64,000 nucleotides of DNA from an uncultured Planctomycetales bacterium (lineage in GTDB: Bacteria; Omnitrophota; Gorgyraeia; Zapsychrales; Fredricksoniimonadaceae): positions 14,790 to 78,789 of the forward strand of contig CAZFNI010000006.1 of the NCBI GenBank assembly GCA_964520655.1, given 5' to 3'. A program made the position numbers and the translations under genes. The stretch's first letter is position 1. Each line of letters begins with the position of its first letter. Shown here in pieces: positions 8,949 through 21,300 of this stretch. A model generated the notes under the pieces. It saw nothing but the letters and a program-made list of their open reading frames with translations, ran no database searches and was not told the origin of the DNA.

Positions 8949-9033
8949 TGGTGCCGGAGGAGAGATTTGAACTCTCAAGTCTTTCGCCATACGCTTGTGA
9001 GACGTACGCTTATACCAATTCCGCCACCCCTGC
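8949..9033 (-). tRNA. tRNA-like gene, 85 nt with encoded CCA. The anticodon loop reads CUCACAA (anticodon CAC) but the long 13-nt variable region is typical of type II tRNAs. Identity uncertain
   Basis: Minus strand reads GCAGGGG-TG-GCGGAATTGGTAT...-TACGT/CTCACAA/GCGTA-TGGCGAAAGACTT-GAGAG/TTCAAAT/CTCTC-CTCCGGC-A-CCA. T arm is perfect, anticodon stem is 5 bp, acceptor stem is 6/7 paired (A3:G70 mismatch), D stem is weak. Confidence 0.5.
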
Positions 9034-11219: not shown

Positions 11220-12712
11220 TGGATAATCCCCGCGCTCACAATTCGGCCTTGGCCTGGCAATGGATCTCTTTTGCGGTGATCGCTTCGCTCGTGTGGCTGG
11301 TGTACGCGCCTTCCTTAATGCATGTGGCCCGCGCCGATCAGATCATGTATTTAGCGGAGGTGGGGCATAAGCATTCCCTCTGGGACCTGACGATCGGCAG
11401 TATGGACTTAAACCGTCACCGGCTATTTGGTCCGGGCGATGAGATCTTATTCCGTCCTGTTGTCTATGTATTGCTTGGTTTGGAGAAATATTTTTTCGGC
11501 AATCAATTCATGTTGTGGCAGACGGTGGGCATCGCGCTGCATTTGACTGTACTTTGGCAATTGCTGCGTTTATTGCTTCTCGTTTATACTGGTCTGCCAG
11601 CAGTCATGTTCGCGGCATTGTTCGCCCTGATGTTCGTCAATCTGGAAATGGTGACGTGGCAGCATATCAATGGGTATATGATCTTCGCTGCTGTTTCGCT
11701 CTTGGCACTGCGTAAAGTCTGGGAAGTGTTGAACGGCAAAGAGCCAACGTCGAGAGATAGTTTGGTCATATTCTTGCTGCTGCTGTTGGCTGGTTTGACC
11801 CATGAGATGGGCAATGTGGTGGCGCTGGTATTAGGCACAGTAGTGTTCTTTTATAAGCCGCAGCACAGGTTGTTTTACCGCAGCCTTTTACTTGTTCCGG
11901 CGGTTTATCTGCTGGCAAGTTTACTCAATGCCTGGTCGCATCCATTTACCACAACAATGTATCATCAGCATCAGATCGCACAGATCTTAAGCAATGGCGT
12001 CTATGCCCTGGGGGCGTGGACCTATGTCGGGCTTTTTCCTTTTGATTTTCAGTGGCTGTTCGCTGCGCGTAATATGATCGCCCCGGAAGAAATACATTTG
12101 ATCAAATGGCCGCATGTGCAAGATCCTGCGGCGCTATTAGCTATTGCGGCTGTTGTTCTGCTGGTCGTATTTTCCTGCCGCCGCAGATCACCGGGAGGGC
12201 ATCAGCCCATGATCATCACGGCGATCTGCTTTGTTTTATCTGTTATCTTTGCCCTGATCATTGCTGTCGGTCGGGGGAGCCAGTGGCATATCTGGGAGGT
12301 GATCCGGATCAATACCTACTATATGTATATTTTCTGGCTTTTCATCTGCGTGGGGGTTTTTACGCTGGTGCCCTGGAATAATATAGGCCGTTTAGCAAAG
12401 ATCGTATTCTGCACGGTGCTGGCGGGGCTGATCTTGCTCAATGCTCAAAGGCTTTACGCGGTCAATGACAAGCAGGTGCGGGATAATAATGACATCATTG
12501 TGCTTGTCAATACATTGGAAATGTTCACAGATAAGCATAAGGGACAGCCGGGTTTTTCATTTTATGTTGATCCGAAATACCCCGGCAATTATGTGTATTC
12601 CGAGTTAAGACGTTTCGATGACCCTAAGACCCGTCAGTACAATCTTATTGAGGTGCTCTACCCAGAGCATTACACGGACAAAGATCCGCAATACAAGTTC
12701 CTGGTAAAGTAG
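11219..12712 (+). CDS. polytopic membrane protein (GT-C-like glycosyltransferase fold suspected)
   Basis: 497 aa, more than 10 TM helices, soluble C-terminal segment; architecture resembles the ArnT/PMT-type proteins elsewhere in the window. Confidence 0.4.
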   Translation: MDNPRAHNSALAWQWISFAVIASLVWLVYAPSLMHVARADQIMYLAEVGHKHSLWDLTIGSMDLNRHRLFGPGDEILFRPVVYVLLGLEKYFFGNQFMLWQTVGIALHLTVLWQLLRLLLLVYTGLPAVMFAALFALMFVNLEMVTWQHINGYMIFAAVSLLALRKVWEVLNGKEPTSRDSLVIFLLLLLAGLTHEMGNVVALVLGTVVFFYKPQHRLFYRSLLLVPAVYLLASLLNAWSHPFTTTMYHQHQIAQILSNGVYALGAWTYVGLFPFDFQWLFAARNMIAPEEIHLIKWPHVQDPAALLAIAAVVLLVVFSCRRRSPGGHQPMIITAICFVLSVIFALIIAVGRGSQWHIWEVIRINTYYMYIFWLFICVGVFTLVPWNNIGRLAKIVFCTVLAGLILLNAQRLYAVNDKQVRDNNDIIVLVNTLEMFTDKHKGQPGFSFYVDPKYPGNYVYSELRRFDDPKTRQYNLIEVLYPEHYTDKDPQYKFLVK

Positions 12713-13493
12713 AAGGTCTTTTATCGCTGGCCCGTCTGATCGACGCATTCTCCTGCCAGAAGAAATCCACGGTTTTAGAGTGATACATATCGCTGCGCTT
12801 AAAGACTTTAAAGGGCAGGGACATATCCATGACGCCACGACACAAACTGTCGTATTCTTCGTCGGGGATAGCAAGCGTTGCGGCGTTGATAGACCCGCCG
12901 CGTCCCTCGGGGATGAATTTATACAAATGCCACGCATGGATGAACGGCGCGCTGCTGTTAAAGGTCTTGATGAAAGAAGATAAGTTAAGCAGACCATTTT
13001 GATTGATCTTAGTGATGATCGTCGATAGGGTGACGCTTTTGCCGGCCGCGCGCAGGTCTTTTAGCCGTCCGATGATGATCTGGTGATGCGTGTTCTTATA
13101 AGAACGCATGGCATTGTGAGTCTTCGCGTCAGCGGATTCAATGGGCAGGACATAGCGGTCAATGCTTGAGATCGTTGTGTAGCCAGGCGGCATGGCAATG
13201 CCGTTGGTGCCTGCTTGAACGAAGAGTCCGAGTTCTTTGGCTTTTTCTGTTAAGGGTATTAGGCCGTTCGGCCAGGTGAAAGGTTCTCCGCCGCCAAAAA
13301 CGATATTGGAAACCCCTTCTGTTTTTAAGGTTTTCAATAGTTCGACGGCAGCCGCAAAGGACATGACATCAAAATGATCCTCCGTGATGCAAAATGAACA
13401 GCTCATGTTGCATGCCGGCTGCAAGAATATGACAGCGACCTTAGGCGAAGAGAAGGAAGCCATTGGCGATAAAGAAAATTGAGATGGCGCCAA
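12645..13493 (-). CDS. radical SAM domain protein
   Basis: CNMSCSFC (CxxxCxxC) near the N-terminus and a GGGEP motif; about 280 aa. Confidence 0.6.
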   Translation of the reverse strand: MAPSQFSLSPMASFSSPKVAVIFLQPACNMSCSFCITEDHFDVMSFAAAVELLKTLKTEGVSNIVFGGGEPFTWPNGLIPLTEKAKELGLFVQAGTNGIAMPPGYTTISSIDRYVLPIESADAKTHNAMRSYKNTHHQIIIGRLKDLRAAGKSVTLSTIITKINQNGLLNLSSFIKTFNSSAPFIHAWHLYKFIPEGRGGSINAATLAIPDEEYDSLCRGVMDMSLPFKVFKRSDMYHSKTVDFFWQENASIRRASDKRPSTLPGTCIADLCPCNALGRAPQ

Positions 13494-13974
13494 TGATAAG
13501 CCCCACGATCCACATATCCCTGCGTTTTAGCAGCGCTCCCACGGAAGAGAGCATGATGCCGATCTGCGCAAAGACAACCGAGAGCGAGAATTGGCTTCCC
13601 CGGCGAACAACCAGAGTGTTTTCTTTGTTGGTGTCTTCGGCCTGTTTTTTGATCTGCGCTTTTTCCGTATCGTAGCGGGTGATGTTAGCTGATGCCTCCG
13701 CAATGTCTTTGGTGAAGGCGGCGCGCTGCTCAGGGGAAGTTGAACCTAGGAGCTGTATTTCAAACGATTTTTTCTGCATCTCCATCAGGTTCTGTTTGAT
13801 GCTTTTCGCCTGGAAATACGACCATTGGCTGCCTTCCTGGGCGGTCAACAGCTGCGCCTTCGCGATGAAGTAAGCGGAACGGGAAGAGCCGATGGCCGCG
13901 ACGACGGCCAATACGGTGGTTGTGATCGCGATGCCCTGCATCCATTTTTCTTTGATGATCGGTTGGTCGGCCAT
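13441..13974 (-). CDS. DUF4337-like membrane protein
   Basis: N- and C-terminal TM helices flanking a coiled-coil region; 177 aa. Confidence 0.4.
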   Translation of the reverse strand: MADQPIIKEKWMQGIAITTTVLAVVAAIGSSRSAYFIAKAQLLTAQEGSQWSYFQAKSIKQNLMEMQKKSFEIQLLGSTSPEQRAAFTKDIAEASANITRYDTEKAQIKKQAEDTNKENTLVVRRGSQFSLSVVFAQIGIMLSSVGALLKRRDMWIVGLIIGAISIFFIANGFLLFA

Positions 13975-14038
13975 AAGAAGTCCTTGTTAATGGGTTATGA
14001 TGATGCATTATTATATAGAACCTCGCGGTTAAATGCAA

Positions 14039-14067
14039 TTTGCTTAAAAACGTATTTTCCTTTATAC
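14039..14067 (+). promoter_or_regulatory. candidate ssrA promoter TTGCTT-N17-TATACT
   Basis: -35 at 14039-14044, 17-nt spacer, -10 at 14062-14067, about 35 nt upstream of the mature tmRNA 5' end (precursor processing expected). Confidence 0.4.
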
Positions 14068-14103
14068 TTTAACCCGTCAGCTCAGTATTGTTCTTTTCTA
14101 TAT

Positions 14104-14511
14104 GGGGGTGATTGGTCTCGACTTGTTTAGCTCGAGGTTAGATGGCATGCCGGGGAAGCTTGGTCGGCCCCGATACCAATCCAAGCACAAATTACACGCT
14201 AACAACACGTTAACGTTCGACGGTGTTATGGCGGAATTCGCGAAAAGCGAAGCTCCGGCAGAAGCCGTTGCTGTCTAAGCTCAAGTAGCTTAGCCTGTTT
14301 ACCTAGAACGCCTGCTACTGGGATAAACAGCCGAAAGCAGGCTGCTCCAAATGGATGCTCTTAACGTTTGGCTAAGACTTCATAGGGCTGGCTTTATGTT
14401 GCTCCTGTCTGCTGGAAGACATAAAGCGATGATCATGTAAACAGACTACGCATGTAGATGTCTCTCCTTAGAAACTCAAGGACCCGGGTTCGATCCCCGG
14501 CACCTCCACCA
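14104..14511 (+). ncRNA. ssrA: tmRNA (SsrA), one-piece, with encoded CCA
   Basis: 5' GGGGGTGATTGGTCTCGAC... and 3' ...GGACCCGGGTTCGATCCCCGGCACCTCCACCA. The acceptor stem GGGGGTG/CACCTCC pairs with one G-U, and there is a tRNA-like T arm. A candidate tag ORF AEFAKSEAPAEAVAV-stop lies at about 14232-14279. Confidence 0.9.
14490..14511 (+). repeat. attL-like copy of a direct repeat (the 3' end of ssrA)
   Basis: tcgatccccggcacctccacca; repeated with one mismatch at 18208-18229. Confidence 0.75.
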
Positions 14512-14542
14512 GCCTACGCTGTCAGAATTAAAATAGCGGAGG

Positions 14543-14582
14543 CTGTCCGCCGAAGCTCCAAAGGAGCGAAGGCGGACACAGC
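14543..14582 (+). terminator. imperfect stem-loop downstream of ssrA (GCTGTCCGCC...GGCGGACACAGC)
   Basis: About 10-bp stem with one bulge and an 18-nt loop; no U-tract, so factor-independent termination is uncertain. Confidence 0.25.
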
Positions 14583-14655
14583 TACGGCTGGCTACGCCAG
14601 TCCGCCGGAGCTTGCTGCAATCAAGCGTAGGAGGACTAATCTTACCCAAAATCTT

Positions 14656-14895
14656 ATGCACTACGTCTACCGCCTACAATCCATTGAACACCCCGAGCAG
14701 AAATATACCGGTTTCACATCTGACATCACCAAGCGCCTTGAATATCACAACAATGGTCAATCATCCCACACGTCAAAATATAAGCCCTGGAAATTGATAA
14801 ATTATTTTGCTTTTGACGATCAACAGAAGGCAATGGCTTTCGAAATGTATCTCAAGTCCGGTTCAGGAAGAGCATTTACGCAGAAACATTTTTAA
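14656..14895 (+). CDS. GIY-YIG nuclease family protein (80 aa)
   Basis: HYVYRLQS...YTGFTSDITKRLEYHNNG matches the GIY-(x10)-YIG...R...E...N motif. Start trimmed from the track ORF 14458 because its upstream part overlaps the tmRNA. Confidence 0.7.
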   Translation: MHYVYRLQSIEHPEQKYTGFTSDITKRLEYHNNGQSSHTSKYKPWKLINYFAFDDQQKAMAFEMYLKSGSGRAFTQKHF

Positions 14896-15026
14896 AATAC
14901 AGAGATTGTTTCAGATCCTTCCCAAAAGGCAGGTTGTAATAATGATAGTTTTTGTAGCACTAAAGACAGTTGATGAAGAGTGTAGTGTGCTACATTGAGC
15001 AGAGGGCAGAGGTTTCTTAATAAATA

Positions 15027-15052
15027 AAATAGGGCGCTGTCCCCTATTTTAT
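15027..15052 (+). terminator. rho-independent terminator (AAATAGGG-cgctgtc-CCCTATTT plus T-run)
   Basis: 8-bp stem, 7-nt loop, followed by a TTTAT tract. Confidence 0.5.
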
Positions 15053-15105
15053 TCATATTTTGTTTTCAAATCGTGAGTATTAAATCATAAATAGAGGCAT
15101 AGAAT

Positions 15106-15390
15106 ATGAATGAGAATTATGATCGGCATGATTTTTTAAGGATTGCTATACCGGGGTACATTTTTCTTCTGGTTTTATGGACGTATTGGGTAATTCTAAA
15201 TAATAATATTAAATTTGATGATCCTAAGTCACTTATTGGGGTATTGGCAGCCGGATTTCCTATTGGATTTATTATTCAAGGCATATATCAAGCTTGGCAC
15301 ATTAAATTAGGAGACTTAGATTCACTAGATGGTTGGGAAGGGGAATGTTTAGTAAAGGCGTTAAAGGCAAAAATGAGGAAGGGCTTTTAA
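15106..15390 (+). CDS. island hypothetical membrane protein
   Basis: AT-rich ORF with 2 TM helices; its 3' end overlaps the next ORF in another frame just upstream of an A8 run. Confidence 0.3.
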   Translation: MNENYDRHDFLRIAIPGYIFLLVLWTYWVILNNNIKFDDPKSLIGVLAAGFPIGFIIQGIYQAWHIKLGDLDSLDGWEGECLVKALKAKMRKGF

Positions 15391-15803
15391 AAAAAATTTG
15401 TGCTCCTAAATTTGGTATTCCTGAGTTTAGAAAGATTTCGTGGAGCCTAGAGACATTTTTATTCTTGAAAGAAGAAGAAGAGTATCGAAAGCGGAGTCAT
15501 GAATTAGTTTCTAGAATCCATTCCTTCGGAGCAGCGTGCTGTGCTGTTTTAATTGCGGTTTTGATTAGTCTTTTCGTGGTCTCGAGTTGCTACGATCACT
15601 GTCTTTGTTGTCTGGTTAGCTGCACTGTTGGGCTTAATATATTAGTAGATACTTTTTTCTGGGGGGTAGTTGTGTGGTGTTTTATAATAGGAAGGAATCA
15701 TACAAAAGAAGTTTTTCGTTTAATGTTCTGGAATTTTATTCAAATAAAATCAGATAAATTTATTAAATATATTAAGAAAGATGAAAACAATAGTTGCGCC
15801 TAA
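15333..15803 (+). CDS. island hypothetical membrane protein (possibly the 3' part of the same gene as 15106)
   Basis: Cys-rich TM protein; the stop codon lies inside repeat R1. Confidence 0.3.
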   Translation: MGRGMFSKGVKGKNEEGLLKKICAPKFGIPEFRKISWSLETFLFLKEEEEYRKRSHELVSRIHSFGAACCAVLIAVLISLFVVSSCYDHCLCCLVSCTVGLNILVDTFFWGVVVWCFIIGRNHTKEVFRLMFWNFIQIKSDKFIKYIKKDENNSCA

Positions 15804-15834
15804 ACGGTGCCCATCTAAAGTGAAAAATTATAAT
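15796..15834 (+). repeat. island internal direct repeat R1 (gcgcctaaacggtgcccatctaaagtgaaaaattataat)
   Basis: Copy 1 of 3; overlaps the stop codon of the upstream ORF and ends 5 nt before the next ORF. Confidence 0.7.
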
Positions 15835-15839
15835 TTCAT

Positions 15840-16193
15840 ATGATTAATGGGATTGGCAAGAAACATTTTGGTGAGAGTAATTATATTCTTGATGAACGCT
15901 CTAATGATGAAGAGTTTGACACGACTCAATGGTTCGTATTCTTATGGCTGCCTATATTTCCTTTAAAATCTTATAGAATCAGGCAAAAGTATTGGTCTAT
16001 TCGTCGTCAATCTGATGCTTGTATTTCTATGCATAATGGTGGTTTAGAATTAAGGTATGACAATACTTTTATTATTATTAAAGAATATAAATTGAATTGG
16101 AAGCGGGCAATAAAAACTTATTTCTTTGTACATGGAACAATCTTATTGCTTTTTGTTGTTTTTGGTTATGTCATGCCGAATTTTGTTAAATAG
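15840..16193 (+). CDS. island hypothetical protein (C-terminal TM)
   Basis: AT-rich ORF, 117 aa. Confidence 0.3.
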   Translation: MINGIGKKHFGESNYILDERSNDEEFDTTQWFVFLWLPIFPLKSYRIRQKYWSIRRQSDACISMHNGGLELRYDNTFIIIKEYKLNWKRAIKTYFFVHGTILLLFVVFGYVMPNFVK

Positions 16194-16261
16194 ATTGAAT
16201 ATTCTTTTATTATTTAATGCTAGTGCCTTAAAGTAATAGATTAATCTATTATTAGACTATT

Positions 16262-16573
16262 ATGATTAAACTAAGTAGCAGAACTTTAAAATTAATTAAA
16301 ATTTTTTACGAATTTGAAGAAGAACAAGAAGAAGTAATTTCAGTATTAGAAAATCAATGTGCTGATAATCTGCCATTTTGTGAGAATGGAACTCCATTAT
16401 CGATGGAAAGAATCAGATTTTCAGTATTAAGGCTTGATAAAGAACATGGGGAATTTAATCAATGGGTAAAATTGGCTAATATAGATTGGCGGGATTTATT
16501 TATTGCTGCTGGATTTGGTGATACAGATGCGCACTTAGATTGGGCCAACAAGTTAATAGAACAAAGAACTTGA
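16262..16573 (+). CDS. island hypothetical acidic protein
   Basis: AT-rich ORF, 103 aa; followed by repeat R2. Confidence 0.3.
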   Translation: MIKLSSRTLKLIKIFYEFEEEQEEVISVLENQCADNLPFCENGTPLSMERIRFSVLRLDKEHGEFNQWVKLANIDWRDLFIAAGFGDTDAHLDWANKLIEQRT

Positions 16574-16579
16574 TTAGTT

Positions 16580-16618
16580 CCTAAAAGGCGCCCATTTAAA
16601 GCAAAGAATTTTTATAAT
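16580..16618 (+). repeat. island internal direct repeat R2 (cctaaaaggcgcccatttaaagcaaagaatttttataat)
   Basis: Copy 2 of 3, immediately after the stop codon of ORF 16262-16573. Confidence 0.7.
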
Positions 16619-16672
16619 GTTGTAAGAGTAAAGGTCTACTAAAGTGTTTATCGATAGGAAACAGGCTCGTAC

Positions 16673-17068
16673 ATGAGAAAATTAACTTGCTATGTTCTAA
16701 CCTTGACGCTTTGTATAGTTTTTAATAGTTGTTCAACAATGGAGAGTATAAAAAAGAATTACCAATCAGTTAATTACTCGGACGGCATAGATGTGAGTGA
16801 AGCAAAATTCATTGCTCAGAGTTTTGCAATTAAACAAGATTGGAAGCAATGCTACAATATTAGTCATCCAACGGCTCAAACAATGAATACAGTACGCTCA
16901 AACGGCCATAAAATATGGCAAGTAACTTTTTCTGCAACATATTCTGAGAATATAAAACAAGCGAGTCTTTTCGGATTATTAGGTTTATATAGGGGCGGTG
17001 CCAATGTAGGCATTGATAAGCAAACTGGCAAAGTGGTAGAGGTATTCTTAACAACTTTCGATTTATAA
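16673..17068 (+). CDS. island hypothetical lipoprotein
   Basis: Signal peptide with a lipobox-like LCIVFNSC; 131 aa. Confidence 0.35.
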   Translation: MRKLTCYVLTLTLCIVFNSCSTMESIKKNYQSVNYSDGIDVSEAKFIAQSFAIKQDWKQCYNISHPTAQTMNTVRSNGHKIWQVTFSATYSENIKQASLFGLLGLYRGGANVGIDKQTGKVVEVFLTTFDL

Positions 17069-17118
17069 TAGTTTATTGGTGTACAAATGTTTTATATCCA
17101 AGGTAAAAAATTGTAATT

Positions 17119-17469
17119 ATGGTTATATTAAAGAAATTAGCTAAGGTCTTTCTCTATTTTTTTATAATATTTGTTTCTATTTGTAAACTTTTCGAATCAG
17201 GTTTGATTGATTTTTCATATAAGGATGGACTTGAGGAGTATAAAAAGGGCTCATACAAAAGAACAATAGATTTCTGTGATAAATCTCTTCGTTTTATGCC
17301 TCGAAATCCGAAAGTATATTATCTTAAGGCGTTGGCATATTATCAAATGAATGATTTTGATGGCGCATTAGGGACATTAGATAGGTTGTTTATTTATGAT
17401 CCTACTAGCAAACAAGCGATAGAATTACGGGATGATATATATCGATTGAAAGGAATCAAAATCAAATAA
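17119..17469 (+). CDS. island small TPR-like protein
   Basis: TPR-like repeat YYLKALAYYQMNDFDGALGTLDRL; N-terminal TM. Confidence 0.35.
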   Translation: MVILKKLAKVFLYFFIIFVSICKLFESGLIDFSYKDGLEEYKKGSYKRTIDFCDKSLRFMPRNPKVYYLKALAYYQMNDFDGALGTLDRLFIYDPTSKQAIELRDDIYRLKGIKIK

Positions 17470-17545
17470 AGTTTTTATGTCTAAAAATGGCGCCAAAAAG
17501 GAGGTTAAAGTTTTCAGCAACGCAACCATATAAAGCCCCCAAAAT

Positions 17546-18085
17546 ATGTCCGAGCAAAAGCCAAAAATTCATAAATTTATTCAATTTTTATTATTATTTC
17601 TTATTCCCAATGTTCAAACTTTTGGTTTAAAGATTATTATTGTTATTGGTGTAGGATTAGCGCACGCAATTAATGTTAATAACGGTGTGTTAATTGGCGT
17701 ATTGATAATGTTGTCGGCAGCAACGTTGTCTTTTGTTTTTGGTATTTTGTTGTATGGCTTGATCGATTTACCAATATTGTTAACTGCAATTGTTTATTGT
17801 TTTGTTCTTCATTTACCTATGCTCTATGCTTCAATTTTGAGTAAAAATTTTAATTTTTTGCTGATATTGGCACAAATAGCCACTTTGCTCATAAGTATAA
17901 TGTTAGTCCGTTTTGGTATTTTATATGCTCAAAAAGTAAGATCAAAAGAACCGGATGGTGGAGAATTAAAATTGGTGATTCCAGAAGCAGTAGTAATAAC
18001 AGGATTGATTCTATTTTGGTTTTTAATTCTGATTATATTTAAGTTATTGGAAATGGTTTTTAGTGCCCAAACGGTGCCCATTTAA
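17546..18085 (+). CDS. island hypothetical polytopic membrane protein
   Basis: 5-6 TM helices; the last 7 codons and the stop are encoded by repeat R3. Confidence 0.35.
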   Translation: MSEQKPKIHKFIQFLLLFLIPNVQTFGLKIIIVIGVGLAHAINVNNGVLIGVLIMLSAATLSFVFGILLYGLIDLPILLTAIVYCFVLHLPMLYASILSKNFNFLLILAQIATLLISIMLVRFGILYAQKVRSKEPDGGELKLVIPEAVVITGLILFWFLILIIFKLLEMVFSAQTVPI

Positions 18086-18104
18086 AGTGAAAAAGTTGTA
18101 AAAT
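18065..18104 (+). repeat. island internal direct repeat R3 (gcccaaacggtgcccatttaaagtgaaaaagttgtaaaat)
   Basis: Copy 3 of 3; forms the 3' end of ORF 17546-18085; about 100 bp from attR. Confidence 0.7.
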
Positions 18105-18207
18105 CTTGTATAAGGTTGTATAGCATGTGGAAAGTGGCTAGAGGGTATTTATCGACGCTGTTTGTTGTAACCTGTTGCAAATAATTAATATTTGTCGACG
18201 GAATCGA

Positions 18208-18229
18208 TCGATCCCCGGTACCTCCACCA
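18208..18229 (+). repeat. attR-like copy of the ssrA 3'-end direct repeat
   Basis: tcgatccccggtacctccacca, 21/22 identical to 14490-14511. Confidence 0.75.
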
Positions 18230-18309
18230 TCTTTTTTCGTACCATCAGTTTTACCGTCGCTCTGCCTTAAATTTGCCTTTCGCTCTATATAGTTTATACT
18301 TTCTATATA

Positions 18310-21300
18310 ATGCGATCCCCATTATTGATTCTTCTTGCCTTTGTATTTTTCATTGATTCTTTGTGCCCTCACTATATCGGAGCGCAAGAACTGGTTTTGC
18401 CAACTCCCGGCAGCATGGTGCAGTTAAGTCCTGCGCTTGATCCCGCTGTACTAAAAGGCATCAAAGTCCATCCAGAGAATCCTTTCAAGTTTGATTTCGT
18501 TTTGGATAAAGGCCAATCCATGCTGCGCGATGCCCAGATCAAAGAGGAATCAACAAAACTCGTTAAATATTTCCTATCTGCATTAACTATCCCTGAAAAA
18601 GACCTTTGGGTGAACCTAAGTCCGTATGAAAAAGACCGTATCGTGCCGGAAAGTTTCGGGCAAACCGAAATGGGCCGCGATCTATTGGCTCAGGATTATT
18701 TGCTTAAACAGATCACCGCGAGTTTAGTCTATCCGGAAGGGGATATTGGTAAACAGTTCTGGAAGAGGGTGTATGAGTTGTCCGGGAATAAGAATGTCCC
18801 GGTCAATACGTTTAATAAAGTGTGGATCGTCCCGGATAAAGCGGTGGTGTATGAGAATGCGAAGAATGGTACAGCGTATGTCGTTGAATCATCATTAAAG
18901 GTATTAACAGAACAGGATTATCTAGCCCAGGATAAGAATGCGGCGGGTGGCGCCCAAGCTGTTCGTTTCGCCCGCAGCTTAAGGGGGACAATGGCATTAT
19001 CTCCTGCTACCCCACGGGGGGATGGGTTAAGCGAGGACGAAAGGAACAGTTGGGCGACAGGACCCGCTCATGCTATTCGTGATCTTGTTATTCCGCAATT
19101 GACCAAAGAGGTCAACACGGGTGCGAACTTCGCCCAATTGCGTCAGGTCTATAATTCTCTCATCCTGGCAACTTGGTATAAGAAGAGGATCAAGGACAGC
19201 ATTCTCTCCCAGGTCTATTCGGATAAAAACAAGGTAGATGGTATCAAGATCAATGATCCCAAGGAGAAAGAACGGATATACACTCAATACTTGGAAGCAT
19301 TCAAGAAGGGTGCGTATAACTACATCAAAGAAGAGCAAGATCCCAACACCCACCAAATTTCTCCAAGAAAATATTTTTCTGGAGGGTTTGATCTGGCGAT
19401 GCTGTCGCAGATCAAGACCACCGACGATCCCCAAAGCATTGCCCCTGGCAGAAATGAATATTTATCCTTAGAGGTTGGGATCAATGAGTCGATCGATCCC
19501 GCACAGATCACTGTAAAAAAAGAAGCGCAACGGTTTTATTATTGGCTGTTCCCAAGAAAAACATTGCCTGATTGGACGGTCGAGAAGATCACCAGTTTGA
19601 AACAAGATACGGCGGATAAAGAAGAGAAAGCGCAGGATGCTGTTGAAGTATTTCAGGATCTTTTAAGAAGCTTTCAAGGTGATCCTGAGAAGTTATTCAT
19701 GAAGATCAGGGCGGACTTTGATCTGCCTAAGATCAATACGGTTGATCTGACCAAAAGGATCAAGGCGGGTTATTACGATTCTGGCGCTCACAAGGATGTT
19801 TATTTGATCGAATTTGAGACCCGCCGAGGCCCGCCTTTAACAATGGCTATTGTTTTAAAACGCGAACAGGCGCCTGGAGATATTGCCGGCAATGAGGTCA
19901 CTGACCTTAGGCGGCTGACAAAATTAGGCAAGAAGGAAAAAAGCAAATACCCGGTTCCTGCCATGGGAGATGTGATCAAGACCGAGGGCGGCCGTCTGAT
20001 GTACCTGGAAGAATTTATCGAAGGCTCAACGGTGGATCAGCTTGAGCAGCAAGGGAAGCTGACATTAAAGATCAGACAAAAGCTGATCGAGAATTTGTTT
20101 AAGATATCGCGGGGATTAAGTGCGGAGATCAGTATTCCCATTGACTTTCATAAACGCAATTGGGTTGTCAACAGCGATGGGGAACCGATCATGGTGGATA
20201 TCGGCAACCGCCGGGTGAATATTTTCTCCCAAAGAGAAAGTGCCGGACATCGGTCAGAAGCATTCTTGCTCATGAGTTTGATGGTCCAGTATGGTTTTGG
20301 TGATGCCAGAGACAGATTTATTTTTGATGCTATCGCCAGATCATTGCCGGCAGAGGCGACCAGTGCGTTTTTCGAGAATGTGCTCGCGTTCTTTATCAAC
20401 ACCGAAGGGGTGGCGCGGTTGATGCAGAAAAAGGGAGGGACTTTCTTTTTGGATCTGCGCGGCGGGGACGGGGATTTCGAGAAAGCGTTACAGGGTTTAG
20501 CGGAGAATTTCAATGAGATCTTCAAAGCATATCTGGATAATCCTGCGCCGTATATTAACGAGAATGATCTTAAAGGCGTTAATCCCAAGGTGATTGCAGG
20601 GGTTCTGTTGTTGGTGCTGGTTTCTTTAAGGTCATCAGATAGCAACATCACGATTGATCCTGAAACGATCGCACAATTAGAAAAAATAAGCGGGGCTATT
20701 CCCCAACAAATGCAATCAGGATCTCCAGCGGTGGAGCAGGAACAAAAAGTAGAAAGGGAAAAGTCTGTTCAATTCCATTATTCAGAGATCTTGTCGTTAG
20801 GTTCCAAGGGCGCAGCCTTTAATGAATTCAAAGAATTGTTCTTGAAGGCACAGAACATTGCAGATCTAGAAAGATATATCAAGGATCTAAAAGGAAAGGT
20901 TAATCCGATCACGGGAAGAGTGTACATTTTTCAGGATGATCCGGGCGATGTTGTTCACAAAGCGTTGAATGCCGCCACATTGACAAGAGAAGTGGAGATA
21001 GCGCTCATTGCCTTTCAACGGCATTGGAATTTGCGAGAAGACGGGGATGTCGGGCCGGAAACAAGAACAAAGATCAAGGATCAAATGGACAGGGCCATGG
21101 TCCAACCGGTGGCAACAAGAGAAGAAGCTGAAAGTATACTGGTCACTTCAGATCAATTGAAAGAGATTCAACAACAACGCGCATTGACGCGGGAAGAGAT
21201 CCAACAATTTAGCGAACAATTCCCAAGTTTTGATTGGGAAAAAGCTTCTTATGTTCCCTGGGGGGAAGTTGTGCATGATCCGCGCCGCGAACCTGGTCCA

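Follow-up and report, generated by a model that had tools for sequence, protein, structure and literature searches.

A directional box repeated in a tmRNA-gene island of an Omnitrophota genome: most likely attachment-site arm sequences and their scars

What does it mean when one short sequence recurs, always in the same direction, at the ends of unrelated small genes? The question is raised by a 64,000-nt stretch of DNA (hereafter the window; assembly GCA_964520655.1, contig CAZFNI010000006.1, positions 14,790 to 78,789) from an uncultured bacterium of the phylum Omnitrophota, in which three direct repeats, here called R1, R2 and R3, lie at junctions between open reading frames (ORFs) downstream of ssrA, the gene for transfer-messenger RNA (tmRNA). 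A preliminary description of the locus had compared these repeats to integron attC sites or to junctions between serially acquired cassettes. Our analysis indicates that the feature most likely consists of attachment-site arm sequences, and scars of such sequences, in a decayed island at the tmRNA gene, an arrangement of an ordinary kind and not a new gene-cassette system. The decisive context, which the preliminary description missed, is that the tmRNA gene on one side and a displaced copy of its 3' end on the other enclose the island, and that the box at the heart of the repeat is conserved in the right-hand attachment region elsewhere. By analogy with lambda-type attachment sites we propose, with middling confidence, that in a family of ssrA-integrating elements the box serves as an arm-type module bound by an integrase or an excision factor, and that R1 and R2 are decaying scars of earlier elements.

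The box and the attachment cores

The argument turns on these features of the window:

14104..14511, + strand: tmRNA (ssrA) gene (ARAGORN; Rfam RF00023, 146 bits, E = 2e-58)
14490-14511, + strand: attL core, the last 22 nt of the tmRNA gene
15796..15822, + strand: box R1, internal copy, GCGCCTAaacgGTGCCCAtctaAAGTG; 2 substitutions against the 25-nt consensus
16577..16603, + strand: box R2, internal copy, GTTCCTAaaagGCGCCCAtttaAAGCA; 3 substitutions; followed by one TTGTAAGAG
18063..18089, + strand: box R3, terminal copy, GTGCCCAaacgGTGCCCAtttaAAGTG; perfect match to the inter-genome consensus, starting 145 nt upstream of the attR core
18096..18125, + strand: three 10-bp-phased repeats, TTGTAAAATC / TTGTATAAGG / TTGTATAGCA; candidate accessory-protein sites of the Xis or bending-protein type
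18208..18229, + strand: attR core, TCGATCCCCGGTACCTCCACCA, a displaced copy of the tmRNA 3' end, 21/22 identical to attL

The direct copy of the tmRNA 3' end at 18208-18229 is the signature of an element that integrated into the 3' end of ssrA. Together with the tmRNA gene it bounds an island of 3.7 kb (14512 to 18229) that contains a block of low GC content (31-34% against ~49% outside). Among the marks by which tmRNA islands are recognized, an intact target gene, a displaced 3' fragment and a GC content deviating from that of the host are all present, and an integrase is missing, a point to which we return below.

A repeat search of the window yields one three-copy direct family (15793-15843, 16574-16624 and 18060-18110), with identities of 63-78% over 51 nt, and the core AARGGYGCCCATYTAAAG, with up to 3 mismatches allowed, matches the + strand at R1, R2 and R3 exclusively. 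For the degenerate 18-mer core ~0.34 chance matches are expected against the 3 seen, and none of 100 shuffles (0/100) produced 3 or more. A search of both strands with an nhmmer model built from seven copies found no further box in the window. Because the three copies exceed chance and the profile search adds none, the box is neither a dispersed repeat of the repetitive extragenic palindromic (REP) type nor AT-rich noise, the two deflationary explanations that the preliminary description had named for its own observation. That observation, three direct repeats at ORF junctions, thus stands.

What is conserved within the repeat is a box of 25-27 nt, GTGCCCAaacg-GYGCCCAtyta-AAG. It comprises two 11-bp units, and the AT-rich tail behind it, earlier counted into the repeat, is far less conserved than the box. 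The 7-mer GYGCCCA occurs twice per box in all copies with a period of 11 bp, one helical turn, and the orientation of the box is uniform throughout. There is no inverted or dyad symmetry in it. Single-stranded DNA (ssDNA) folds of R1-R3, on both strands, reveal no hairpin and are no better than those of shuffles (z-scores -1.8 to +0.2), an alignment fold of the seven copies has 5 weak pairs with 0 compensatory changes or covariation, and an Rfam 15 scan of 13500-19000 at E <= 1 returned tmRNA as its sole match, with no family at the box. By inspection, the RYYYAAC ... GTTRRRY pair of attC sites is absent (GCCYAAAC has an extra A and no GTTRRRY partner downstream), and the 11-6-11 imperfect palindrome of Xer/dif sites is likewise not found, the central TTTAAA palindrome being broken (TCTAAA) in R1 and in two of the copies from other genomes introduced below (L012 and L028b). 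These results agree with the earlier remark that the repeats lack attC-type inverted symmetry, and they leave the likeness to attC with neither a hairpin nor a dyad to build on. Also by inspection only, the minus strand of 18063-18084 reads TGGGCAC-N-…GGGCA, with the GG-N10-GC spacing of sigma-54 -24/-12 elements; this spacing is a by-product of the 11-bp repeat, and transcription from a promoter of this kind would run antisense to the ORF upstream.

The box beside attachment cores in other genomes

When 596 Gb of genomes and, in addition, the JGI metagenomes were scanned for exact patterns, most matches were single and due to chance. Three were true homologs, from Omnitrophota or related bacteria, with similarity that continues well past the pattern: a metagenome-assembled genome (MAG) of Omnitrophota (L012), a MAG labelled Planctomycetia (L019) and a 14-kb metagenome contig, Ga0315293_10004066 (L028). 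Two matches of the first box pattern in viral contigs (L001 and L002) were judged to be chance, neither having a tmRNA core nearby; a looser box pattern had no match in viral contigs, and a scan of viral contigs for the tmRNA 3' end gave two matches, both unrelated.

In L012 and L019 the box points toward a 21-nt displaced tmRNA 3' end that lies shortly downstream and starts at the same T-loop position as the fragment in the window. Counted between their first nucleotides, box and core are 145 nt apart for R3, 146 nt in L019 and 184 nt in L012, so in three genomes the box lies, in fixed orientation and at a conserved distance, within the ~200 bp of the core expected of an arm site, a range into which R1 and R2 do not fall. 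The sequence between box and core is otherwise unalignable, except for TTGTAW repeats in 10-bp phase, three after R3, three in L019 and one in L012. Similarity downstream of the box is significant between R3 and L019 (0/300 shuffles reached the score) and marginal between R2 and R3 (p = 0.03). The 25-nt consensus is matched with 0 mismatches by the copies beside a core (R3, L012 and L019) and by L028b, the outermost copy at the end of its contig, whereas the internal copies carry substitutions at otherwise invariant positions (2 in R1, 3 in R2 and 5 in L028a). This contrast between perfect terminal and degenerate internal copies is as expected if selection acts only on the copy adjacent to the core. 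Phased directional half-sites, a conserved distance to the core, another set of phased repeats closer to that core and conservation despite unalignable flanks together lead us to read R3 as the right-hand arm of a family of ssrA-targeting elements.

We envision a scenario in which the segment 14512-18229 is what decay has left of a genomic island at the tmRNA gene, now devoid of an integrase. The box would be a directional protein-binding site with two GYGCCCA half-sites 11 bp apart, forming the distal part of the "P arm" of attP that is retained in attR, in elements whose target would be the T-loop region of ssrA. If the analogy with lambda-type attP holds, the box would be bound by the arm-binding domain of the cognate tyrosine integrase or by its excision factor, accessory proteins would occupy the TTGTAW repeats, and the proteins at both sets of sites would bend the arm back onto the core ~145 bp away. 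R3 would then be a functional or recently functional copy, and R1 and R2 could be the right-hand arm scars of earlier elements that were joined in tandem by accretion and subsequently lost their cores and integration genes by deletion. That cargo ORFs reach into the box could be explained in the same way, since the box would be the inner edge of the sequence that an element must keep for mobility.

Decay and reuse of such a site are supported by two other loci. In L019 (244-625) three successive displaced tmRNA 3' fragments lie nearly back to back, the last two within a ~100-nt repeated segment, and these are scars of several integrations whose island interiors were deleted. The second locus was reached with the neighbouring DUF4337 gene as a synteny anchor. 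Neighbours of the protein it encodes carry the annotation Candidatus Omnitrophica/Omnitrophota, in line with an Omnitrophota host; synteny was lost beyond the closest relative, and the sole tmRNA locus obtained was L043 (GCA_031386565.1). Here (1-1505, - strand) a gene for a small GIY-YIG protein, which has a counterpart in the window, lies downstream of the tmRNA gene, and two extra fragments of its 3' end, each with a terminator, flank a TRL (tRNA-associated locus) gene, which suggests repeated replacement or insertion events involving the GIY-YIG gene itself. The third box-carrying homolog, L028, is an integrative element with two boxes, 72 nt apart, at its end; it encodes a helix-turn-helix (HTH) excisionase-like protein, a 359-aa tyrosine integrase, a second, short integrase of 200 aa and a fusion of an archaeo-eukaryotic primase (AEP) with a DnaB helicase.

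Several observations count against an arm-and-scar origin of the repeats. Pfam reveals no recombinase domain in any island ORF, in agreement with the preliminary description, which had noted that there is no intI, and a hidden Markov model (HMM) made from 45 tyrosine integrases has no match anywhere in the window; because no integrase gene lies inside it, the island is decayed or cis-mobilizable. Neither R1 nor R2 is followed by a remnant of a core, R1 being followed by an ORF start within 5 nt, so the scar model needs two separate deletions that each ended just past a box. We saw no box on the other arm, downstream of attL. The two boxes of L028 are separated by no more than 72 nt and its contig stops ~100 nt past the second, before any core, and at seven loci with homologs of the L028 integrase (48-80% identity) neither a box nor a tmRNA gene was found near the integrase within the sequence covered, which in two of them (L053 and L054) ends ~1.5 kb past the integrase; a third (L050) has a tRNA-Gln gene ~3 kb from it. 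Finally, seven true copies, from four genomes or contigs, is a small number for all the sequence examined. Because the cognate integrase, a core remnant at R1 or R2 and a box on the other arm are all missing and the copies are so few, our confidence in the arm-and-scar reading goes no further than the middle of the scale.

Island genes and other explanations

Between the two cores the island contains the following features:

14656..14895, + strand: small GIY-YIG protein gene, 79 aa (Pfam PF01541, E = 7e-15), with host-like GC content
15023-15053: hairpin terminator after the GIY-YIG gene (terminator scan)
15106..15803, + strand: membrane-protein gene, 232 aa, split by a 1-nt indel at 15368 into 94-aa and 152/156-aa parts; R1 supplies its last codons and stop
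15840..16573, + strand: two small ORFs between R1 and R2, 117 aa (15840-16193) and 103 aa (16262-16573), with no family match
16673..18085, + strand: three small ORFs between R2 and R3, for a 131-aa putative lipoprotein, a 116-aa TPR protein and a 179-aa multi-pass membrane protein

The GIY-YIG gene is probably not part of the low-GC element, which carries six co-oriented genes for small proteins, mostly of membrane, lipoprotein or TPR types and without convincing family matches. All island ORFs and boxes are oriented alike, and the boxes sit at gene ends with some precision. The TAA of ORF 15333-15803 falls within R1 and that of ORF 17546-18085 within R3, R2 starts immediately 3' of the TGA of ORF 16262-16573, and the next ATG after R1, at 15840, is 5 nt past the 39-mer that had originally been taken as the repeat; the coordinates thus reproduce the earlier statements that R1 and R3 provide the stop of an ORF and that the R1 repeat ends 5 nt before the next start. 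The sole homolog of the 232-aa protein, P0167 (45% identity), has a different and longer C-terminus, and the 179-aa protein has no homolog besides itself among 1.84 billion representative proteins, which indicates that the box has become attached to genes unrelated to one another and belongs to no gene family. A phage or plasmid origin of the island was also considered and received no blastn match, and the 232-aa and 179-aa proteins have no relatives in IMG/VR.

Boxes that lie exactly at ORF ends, supply stop codons, point uniformly in one direction and are fused to unrelated genes, alongside cargo ORFs that are small, co-oriented and without family matches, are what one would also expect of a cassette-junction recombination site. 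A recombinase whose gene lies elsewhere would use the box to insert or swap short gene modules, each with a box at its end, and the outcome would be an integron-like array at the distal end of the ssrA island. The internal boxes have no tmRNA core beside them, and the L012 and L019 metagenome contigs are interrupted ~100-140 nt upstream of the box, as could happen if the content of that region varied. We nonetheless regard this explanation as quite unlikely. The box lacks the dyad symmetry or hairpin that attC sites need, as do the core sites on which tyrosine and serine recombinases act, no recombinase was detected in the 64 kb with the integrase HMM, the internal copies are degenerate where the core-adjacent copies are perfect, and the repeats bound groups of 1, 2 and 3 ORFs. 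Moreover, the ORFs between repeats, for which variation as independent units had been suggested as a test, have the same order in all 17 contigs that carry the 179-aa or the 117-aa protein, from at least 12 samples; the arrangement is collinear throughout, and no structural variant of the island exists among them. Nor do candidate degenerate boxes at other ORF junctions (~16219, 17085 and 17480) rise above background, their Smith-Waterman scores of 28-32 falling within the 26-42 found across the window, and we do not claim them. By eye, box-like broken sequences can be picked out at 16219-16240, 17085-17130 and 17480-17515 (for example CTAGTGCC--TTAAAGT and CTAAAAATGGCGCC…TTAAAG), with alignment scores not above background.

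The bolder version of the idea, in which the box is the site of an undescribed, directional and non-palindromic cassette system that adds or swaps short modules of small envelope-protein genes at the distal ends of ssrA islands in Omnitrophota, the ORFs being fused to it in frame (…AQTVPI-stop), seems to us similarly improbable. One part of the original suggestion of serially acquired cassettes does survive. The repeats lie at ORF ends in a foreign island and are probably connected with serial acquisition of DNA; it is the cassette units, invariant and of 1-3 ORFs each, that find no support.

The fusion of boxes to ORF ends raises a further question, whether the conserved sequence is itself coding, or coding as well, either as a shared C-terminal tail, ...(F/C/G)(S/C/G)AQT(V/A)PI-stop, or as a mini-ORF, V/MPKRCPFKVKKL. 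The frame that ends at the box TAA (…SAQTVPI-stop) is open upstream for 183, 43, 33, 48 and 19 codons in R3, L012, L019, L028b and L028a, longer than the other two frames, and in R1 it is closed solely by a CAA-to-TAA change. Yet the codons of the box agree nucleotide by nucleotide between genomes that share only ~70% identity in their housekeeping proteins, the conservation runs beyond the stop codon, and the variable positions show no 3-nt periodicity. Moreover, neither a start codon nor a ribosome-binding site is conserved, ATG is missing from the short ORFs upstream of the box in L012, L019 and L028, and the excess of open frame comes from four copies only. A coding role is therefore very improbable in our judgment, and the open upstream frame may instead reflect ORFs that were repeatedly truncated onto the box.

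A regulatory role deserves more consideration, although it too appears unlikely. A winged-helix-type activator or a repressor could sit on the 11-bp-phased half-sites, which would stand in for a -35 element and make the box a regulated promoter or operator that drives rightward transcription of the next gene group, in the manner of "moron"-like units, or, at the terminal copy, outward transcription over the att site, for example into the integrase gene of the circular element, like "Pcirc"-type promoters. A direct-repeat architecture of this kind resembles activator sites of the pho-box type, ORFs and boxes run in the same direction, and a -10-like hexamer follows the second unit at +14 in R2 (TATAAT), at +14 in R3 and L012 (TAAAAT) and at +11 in R1 (TATAAT). 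No such hexamer occurs at that spacing in L019, L028a or L028b, however, hexamers of this type are frequent in DNA of 31% GC, and simple scans called neither a sigma-70 promoter nor an intrinsic terminator at any box. Ahead of the terminal boxes (R3, L012 and L019) there is nothing but 120-160 nt of non-coding DNA before the att core is reached, and a promoter leaves the fixed distance from box to core unexplained.

The preliminary description had also raised the possibility that the repeat is a recognition or cleavage site of the neighbouring GIY-YIG protein. Proximity alone speaks for this, the gene lying ~0.9 kb upstream of R1. A tblastn search did not find the gene on the box-carrying L012, L019 or L028 (L012 and L019 cover only 97-137 nt upstream of the box, and not the GIY-YIG position beside ssrA); conversely, L043 has the gene and its two 3' fragments beside the tmRNA gene and no box in the 1.5 kb examined. 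In addition, Pfam identifies the 79-aa protein as a bare catalytic domain without a DNA-recognition domain. The lack of co-occurrence in the sequence available already refutes this proposal, if weakly, and we consider it highly improbable.

If instead the box is an attachment arm and its internal copies are scars, then the attachment site of ssrA-targeting elements in Omnitrophota would consist of a core, phased TTGTAW repeats and a two-unit box ~145 bp from the core. To our knowledge, the mobile elements of this poorly studied nanobacterial phylum are almost uncharacterized, and the 25-nt box, a compact and highly specific marker, could help find such islands and their scars. The locus would also illustrate how the terminal arm of an integrase-less island stays perfect as the internal copies degenerate; no new principle of recombination emerges from it.

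A few observations on the locus and its relatives stand apart from the argument. A close relative, L003 (GCA_041910255.1), carries the same locus and is 99.4% identical to the window overall. The indel at 15368, in an A-run, leaves the membrane-protein gene intact in L003/L055, L057 and L059 and split in the window, L004 and L056; since both states occur in independent assemblies it is a real polymorphism. Between the window and L003 there are 0 substitutions in 12000-18000 and 26 differences in 18500-19000, at the 5' end of a 1687-aa gene, which suggests a recent recombination tract over ssrA and the island or a hypervariable giant gene. At 8949-9033 (- strand) an 85-nt class-II tRNA is called by ARAGORN as Val(CAC) in the window and as Leu(CAG) in L003 and L043. 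The window copy has 4 differing positions (three C-to-A changes and an anticodon G-to-C change), whereas only two of the 85 nt separate L003 from L043; the difference reflects either an assembly or sequencing error in the source of the window or a tRNA-Leu that is decaying or has been recoded. The tag encoded by the tmRNA, ANNTLTFDGVMAEFAKSEAPAEAVAV, is long and ends in AV rather than the usual AA, and the tag of L043, ANDNYNVVAEAERILQDADTLATV, is very different.

Comparison with known systems

Islander sets out the general rule for islands at tRNA and tmRNA genes, the Islander/TIGER islands (PMC4383910), and in Dehalococcoides tandem ssrA islands, cis-mobilizable integrase-less islands, accretion and an extra conserved sequence beside the ssrA repeats have been described (PMC3146451). 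The locus studied here resembles these tandem islands in its integration at the 3' end of ssrA, in the displaced 3' fragment that forms a direct repeat and in its low-GC cargo, and also in the occurrence of islands without an integrase, in arrays built by repeated integration and in additional conserved nucleotides upstream of the repeat. It differs in that each of their units keeps an ssrA fragment, whereas the internal units here keep the arm box and not the core, and in that the Dehalococcoides integrase is a serine recombinase.

Other repeat systems offer further comparisons. REP elements and bacterial interspersed mosaic elements (BIMEs) differ from the box, which has no palindrome, has 3 copies in 64 kb, all in the island, and seven true copies overall. 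The pdif modules and other Xer-dependent elements likewise have short conserved sites that bound gene modules and recombinases that are encoded elsewhere, but their dif-type sites, imperfect palindromes of the 11-6-11 form, occur in alternating orientation, whereas the box is a direct repeat that faces one direction. With integron attC sites and clusters of attC sites lacking integron-integrases (CALINs) the locus shares small ORFs, all in one orientation, that look promoterless, match no family and have a repeat at the 3' end; stop codons inside the repeat and the lack of a nearby integrase are common to both as well. Unlike attC, however, the box has no R''/L''-L'/R' inverted repeats, no folded ssDNA structure and no GTTRRRY/RYYYAAC pair, and its units comprise 1-3 ORFs, where cassettes usually hold one, and do not vary between strains.

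The closest parallel to the box itself is found in attP sites of the lambda type, which carry, on both arms, accessory arm-type sites (P1/P2/P'1-3) for the N-terminal domain of the integrase, and tandem Xis sites. The parallel is incomplete, as no integrase or Xis has been identified here and protein binding is a prediction from the analogy, no copy was seen on the other arm, the box has no sequence similarity to any described arm site, and extra copies lie 1.6 kb (R2) and 2.4 kb (R1) from the core. What the two have in common is the architecture: short directional repeats about one helical turn apart and without dyad symmetry, placed 100-200 bp from the crossover core at a conserved distance, with a second set of tandem repeats nearer the core.

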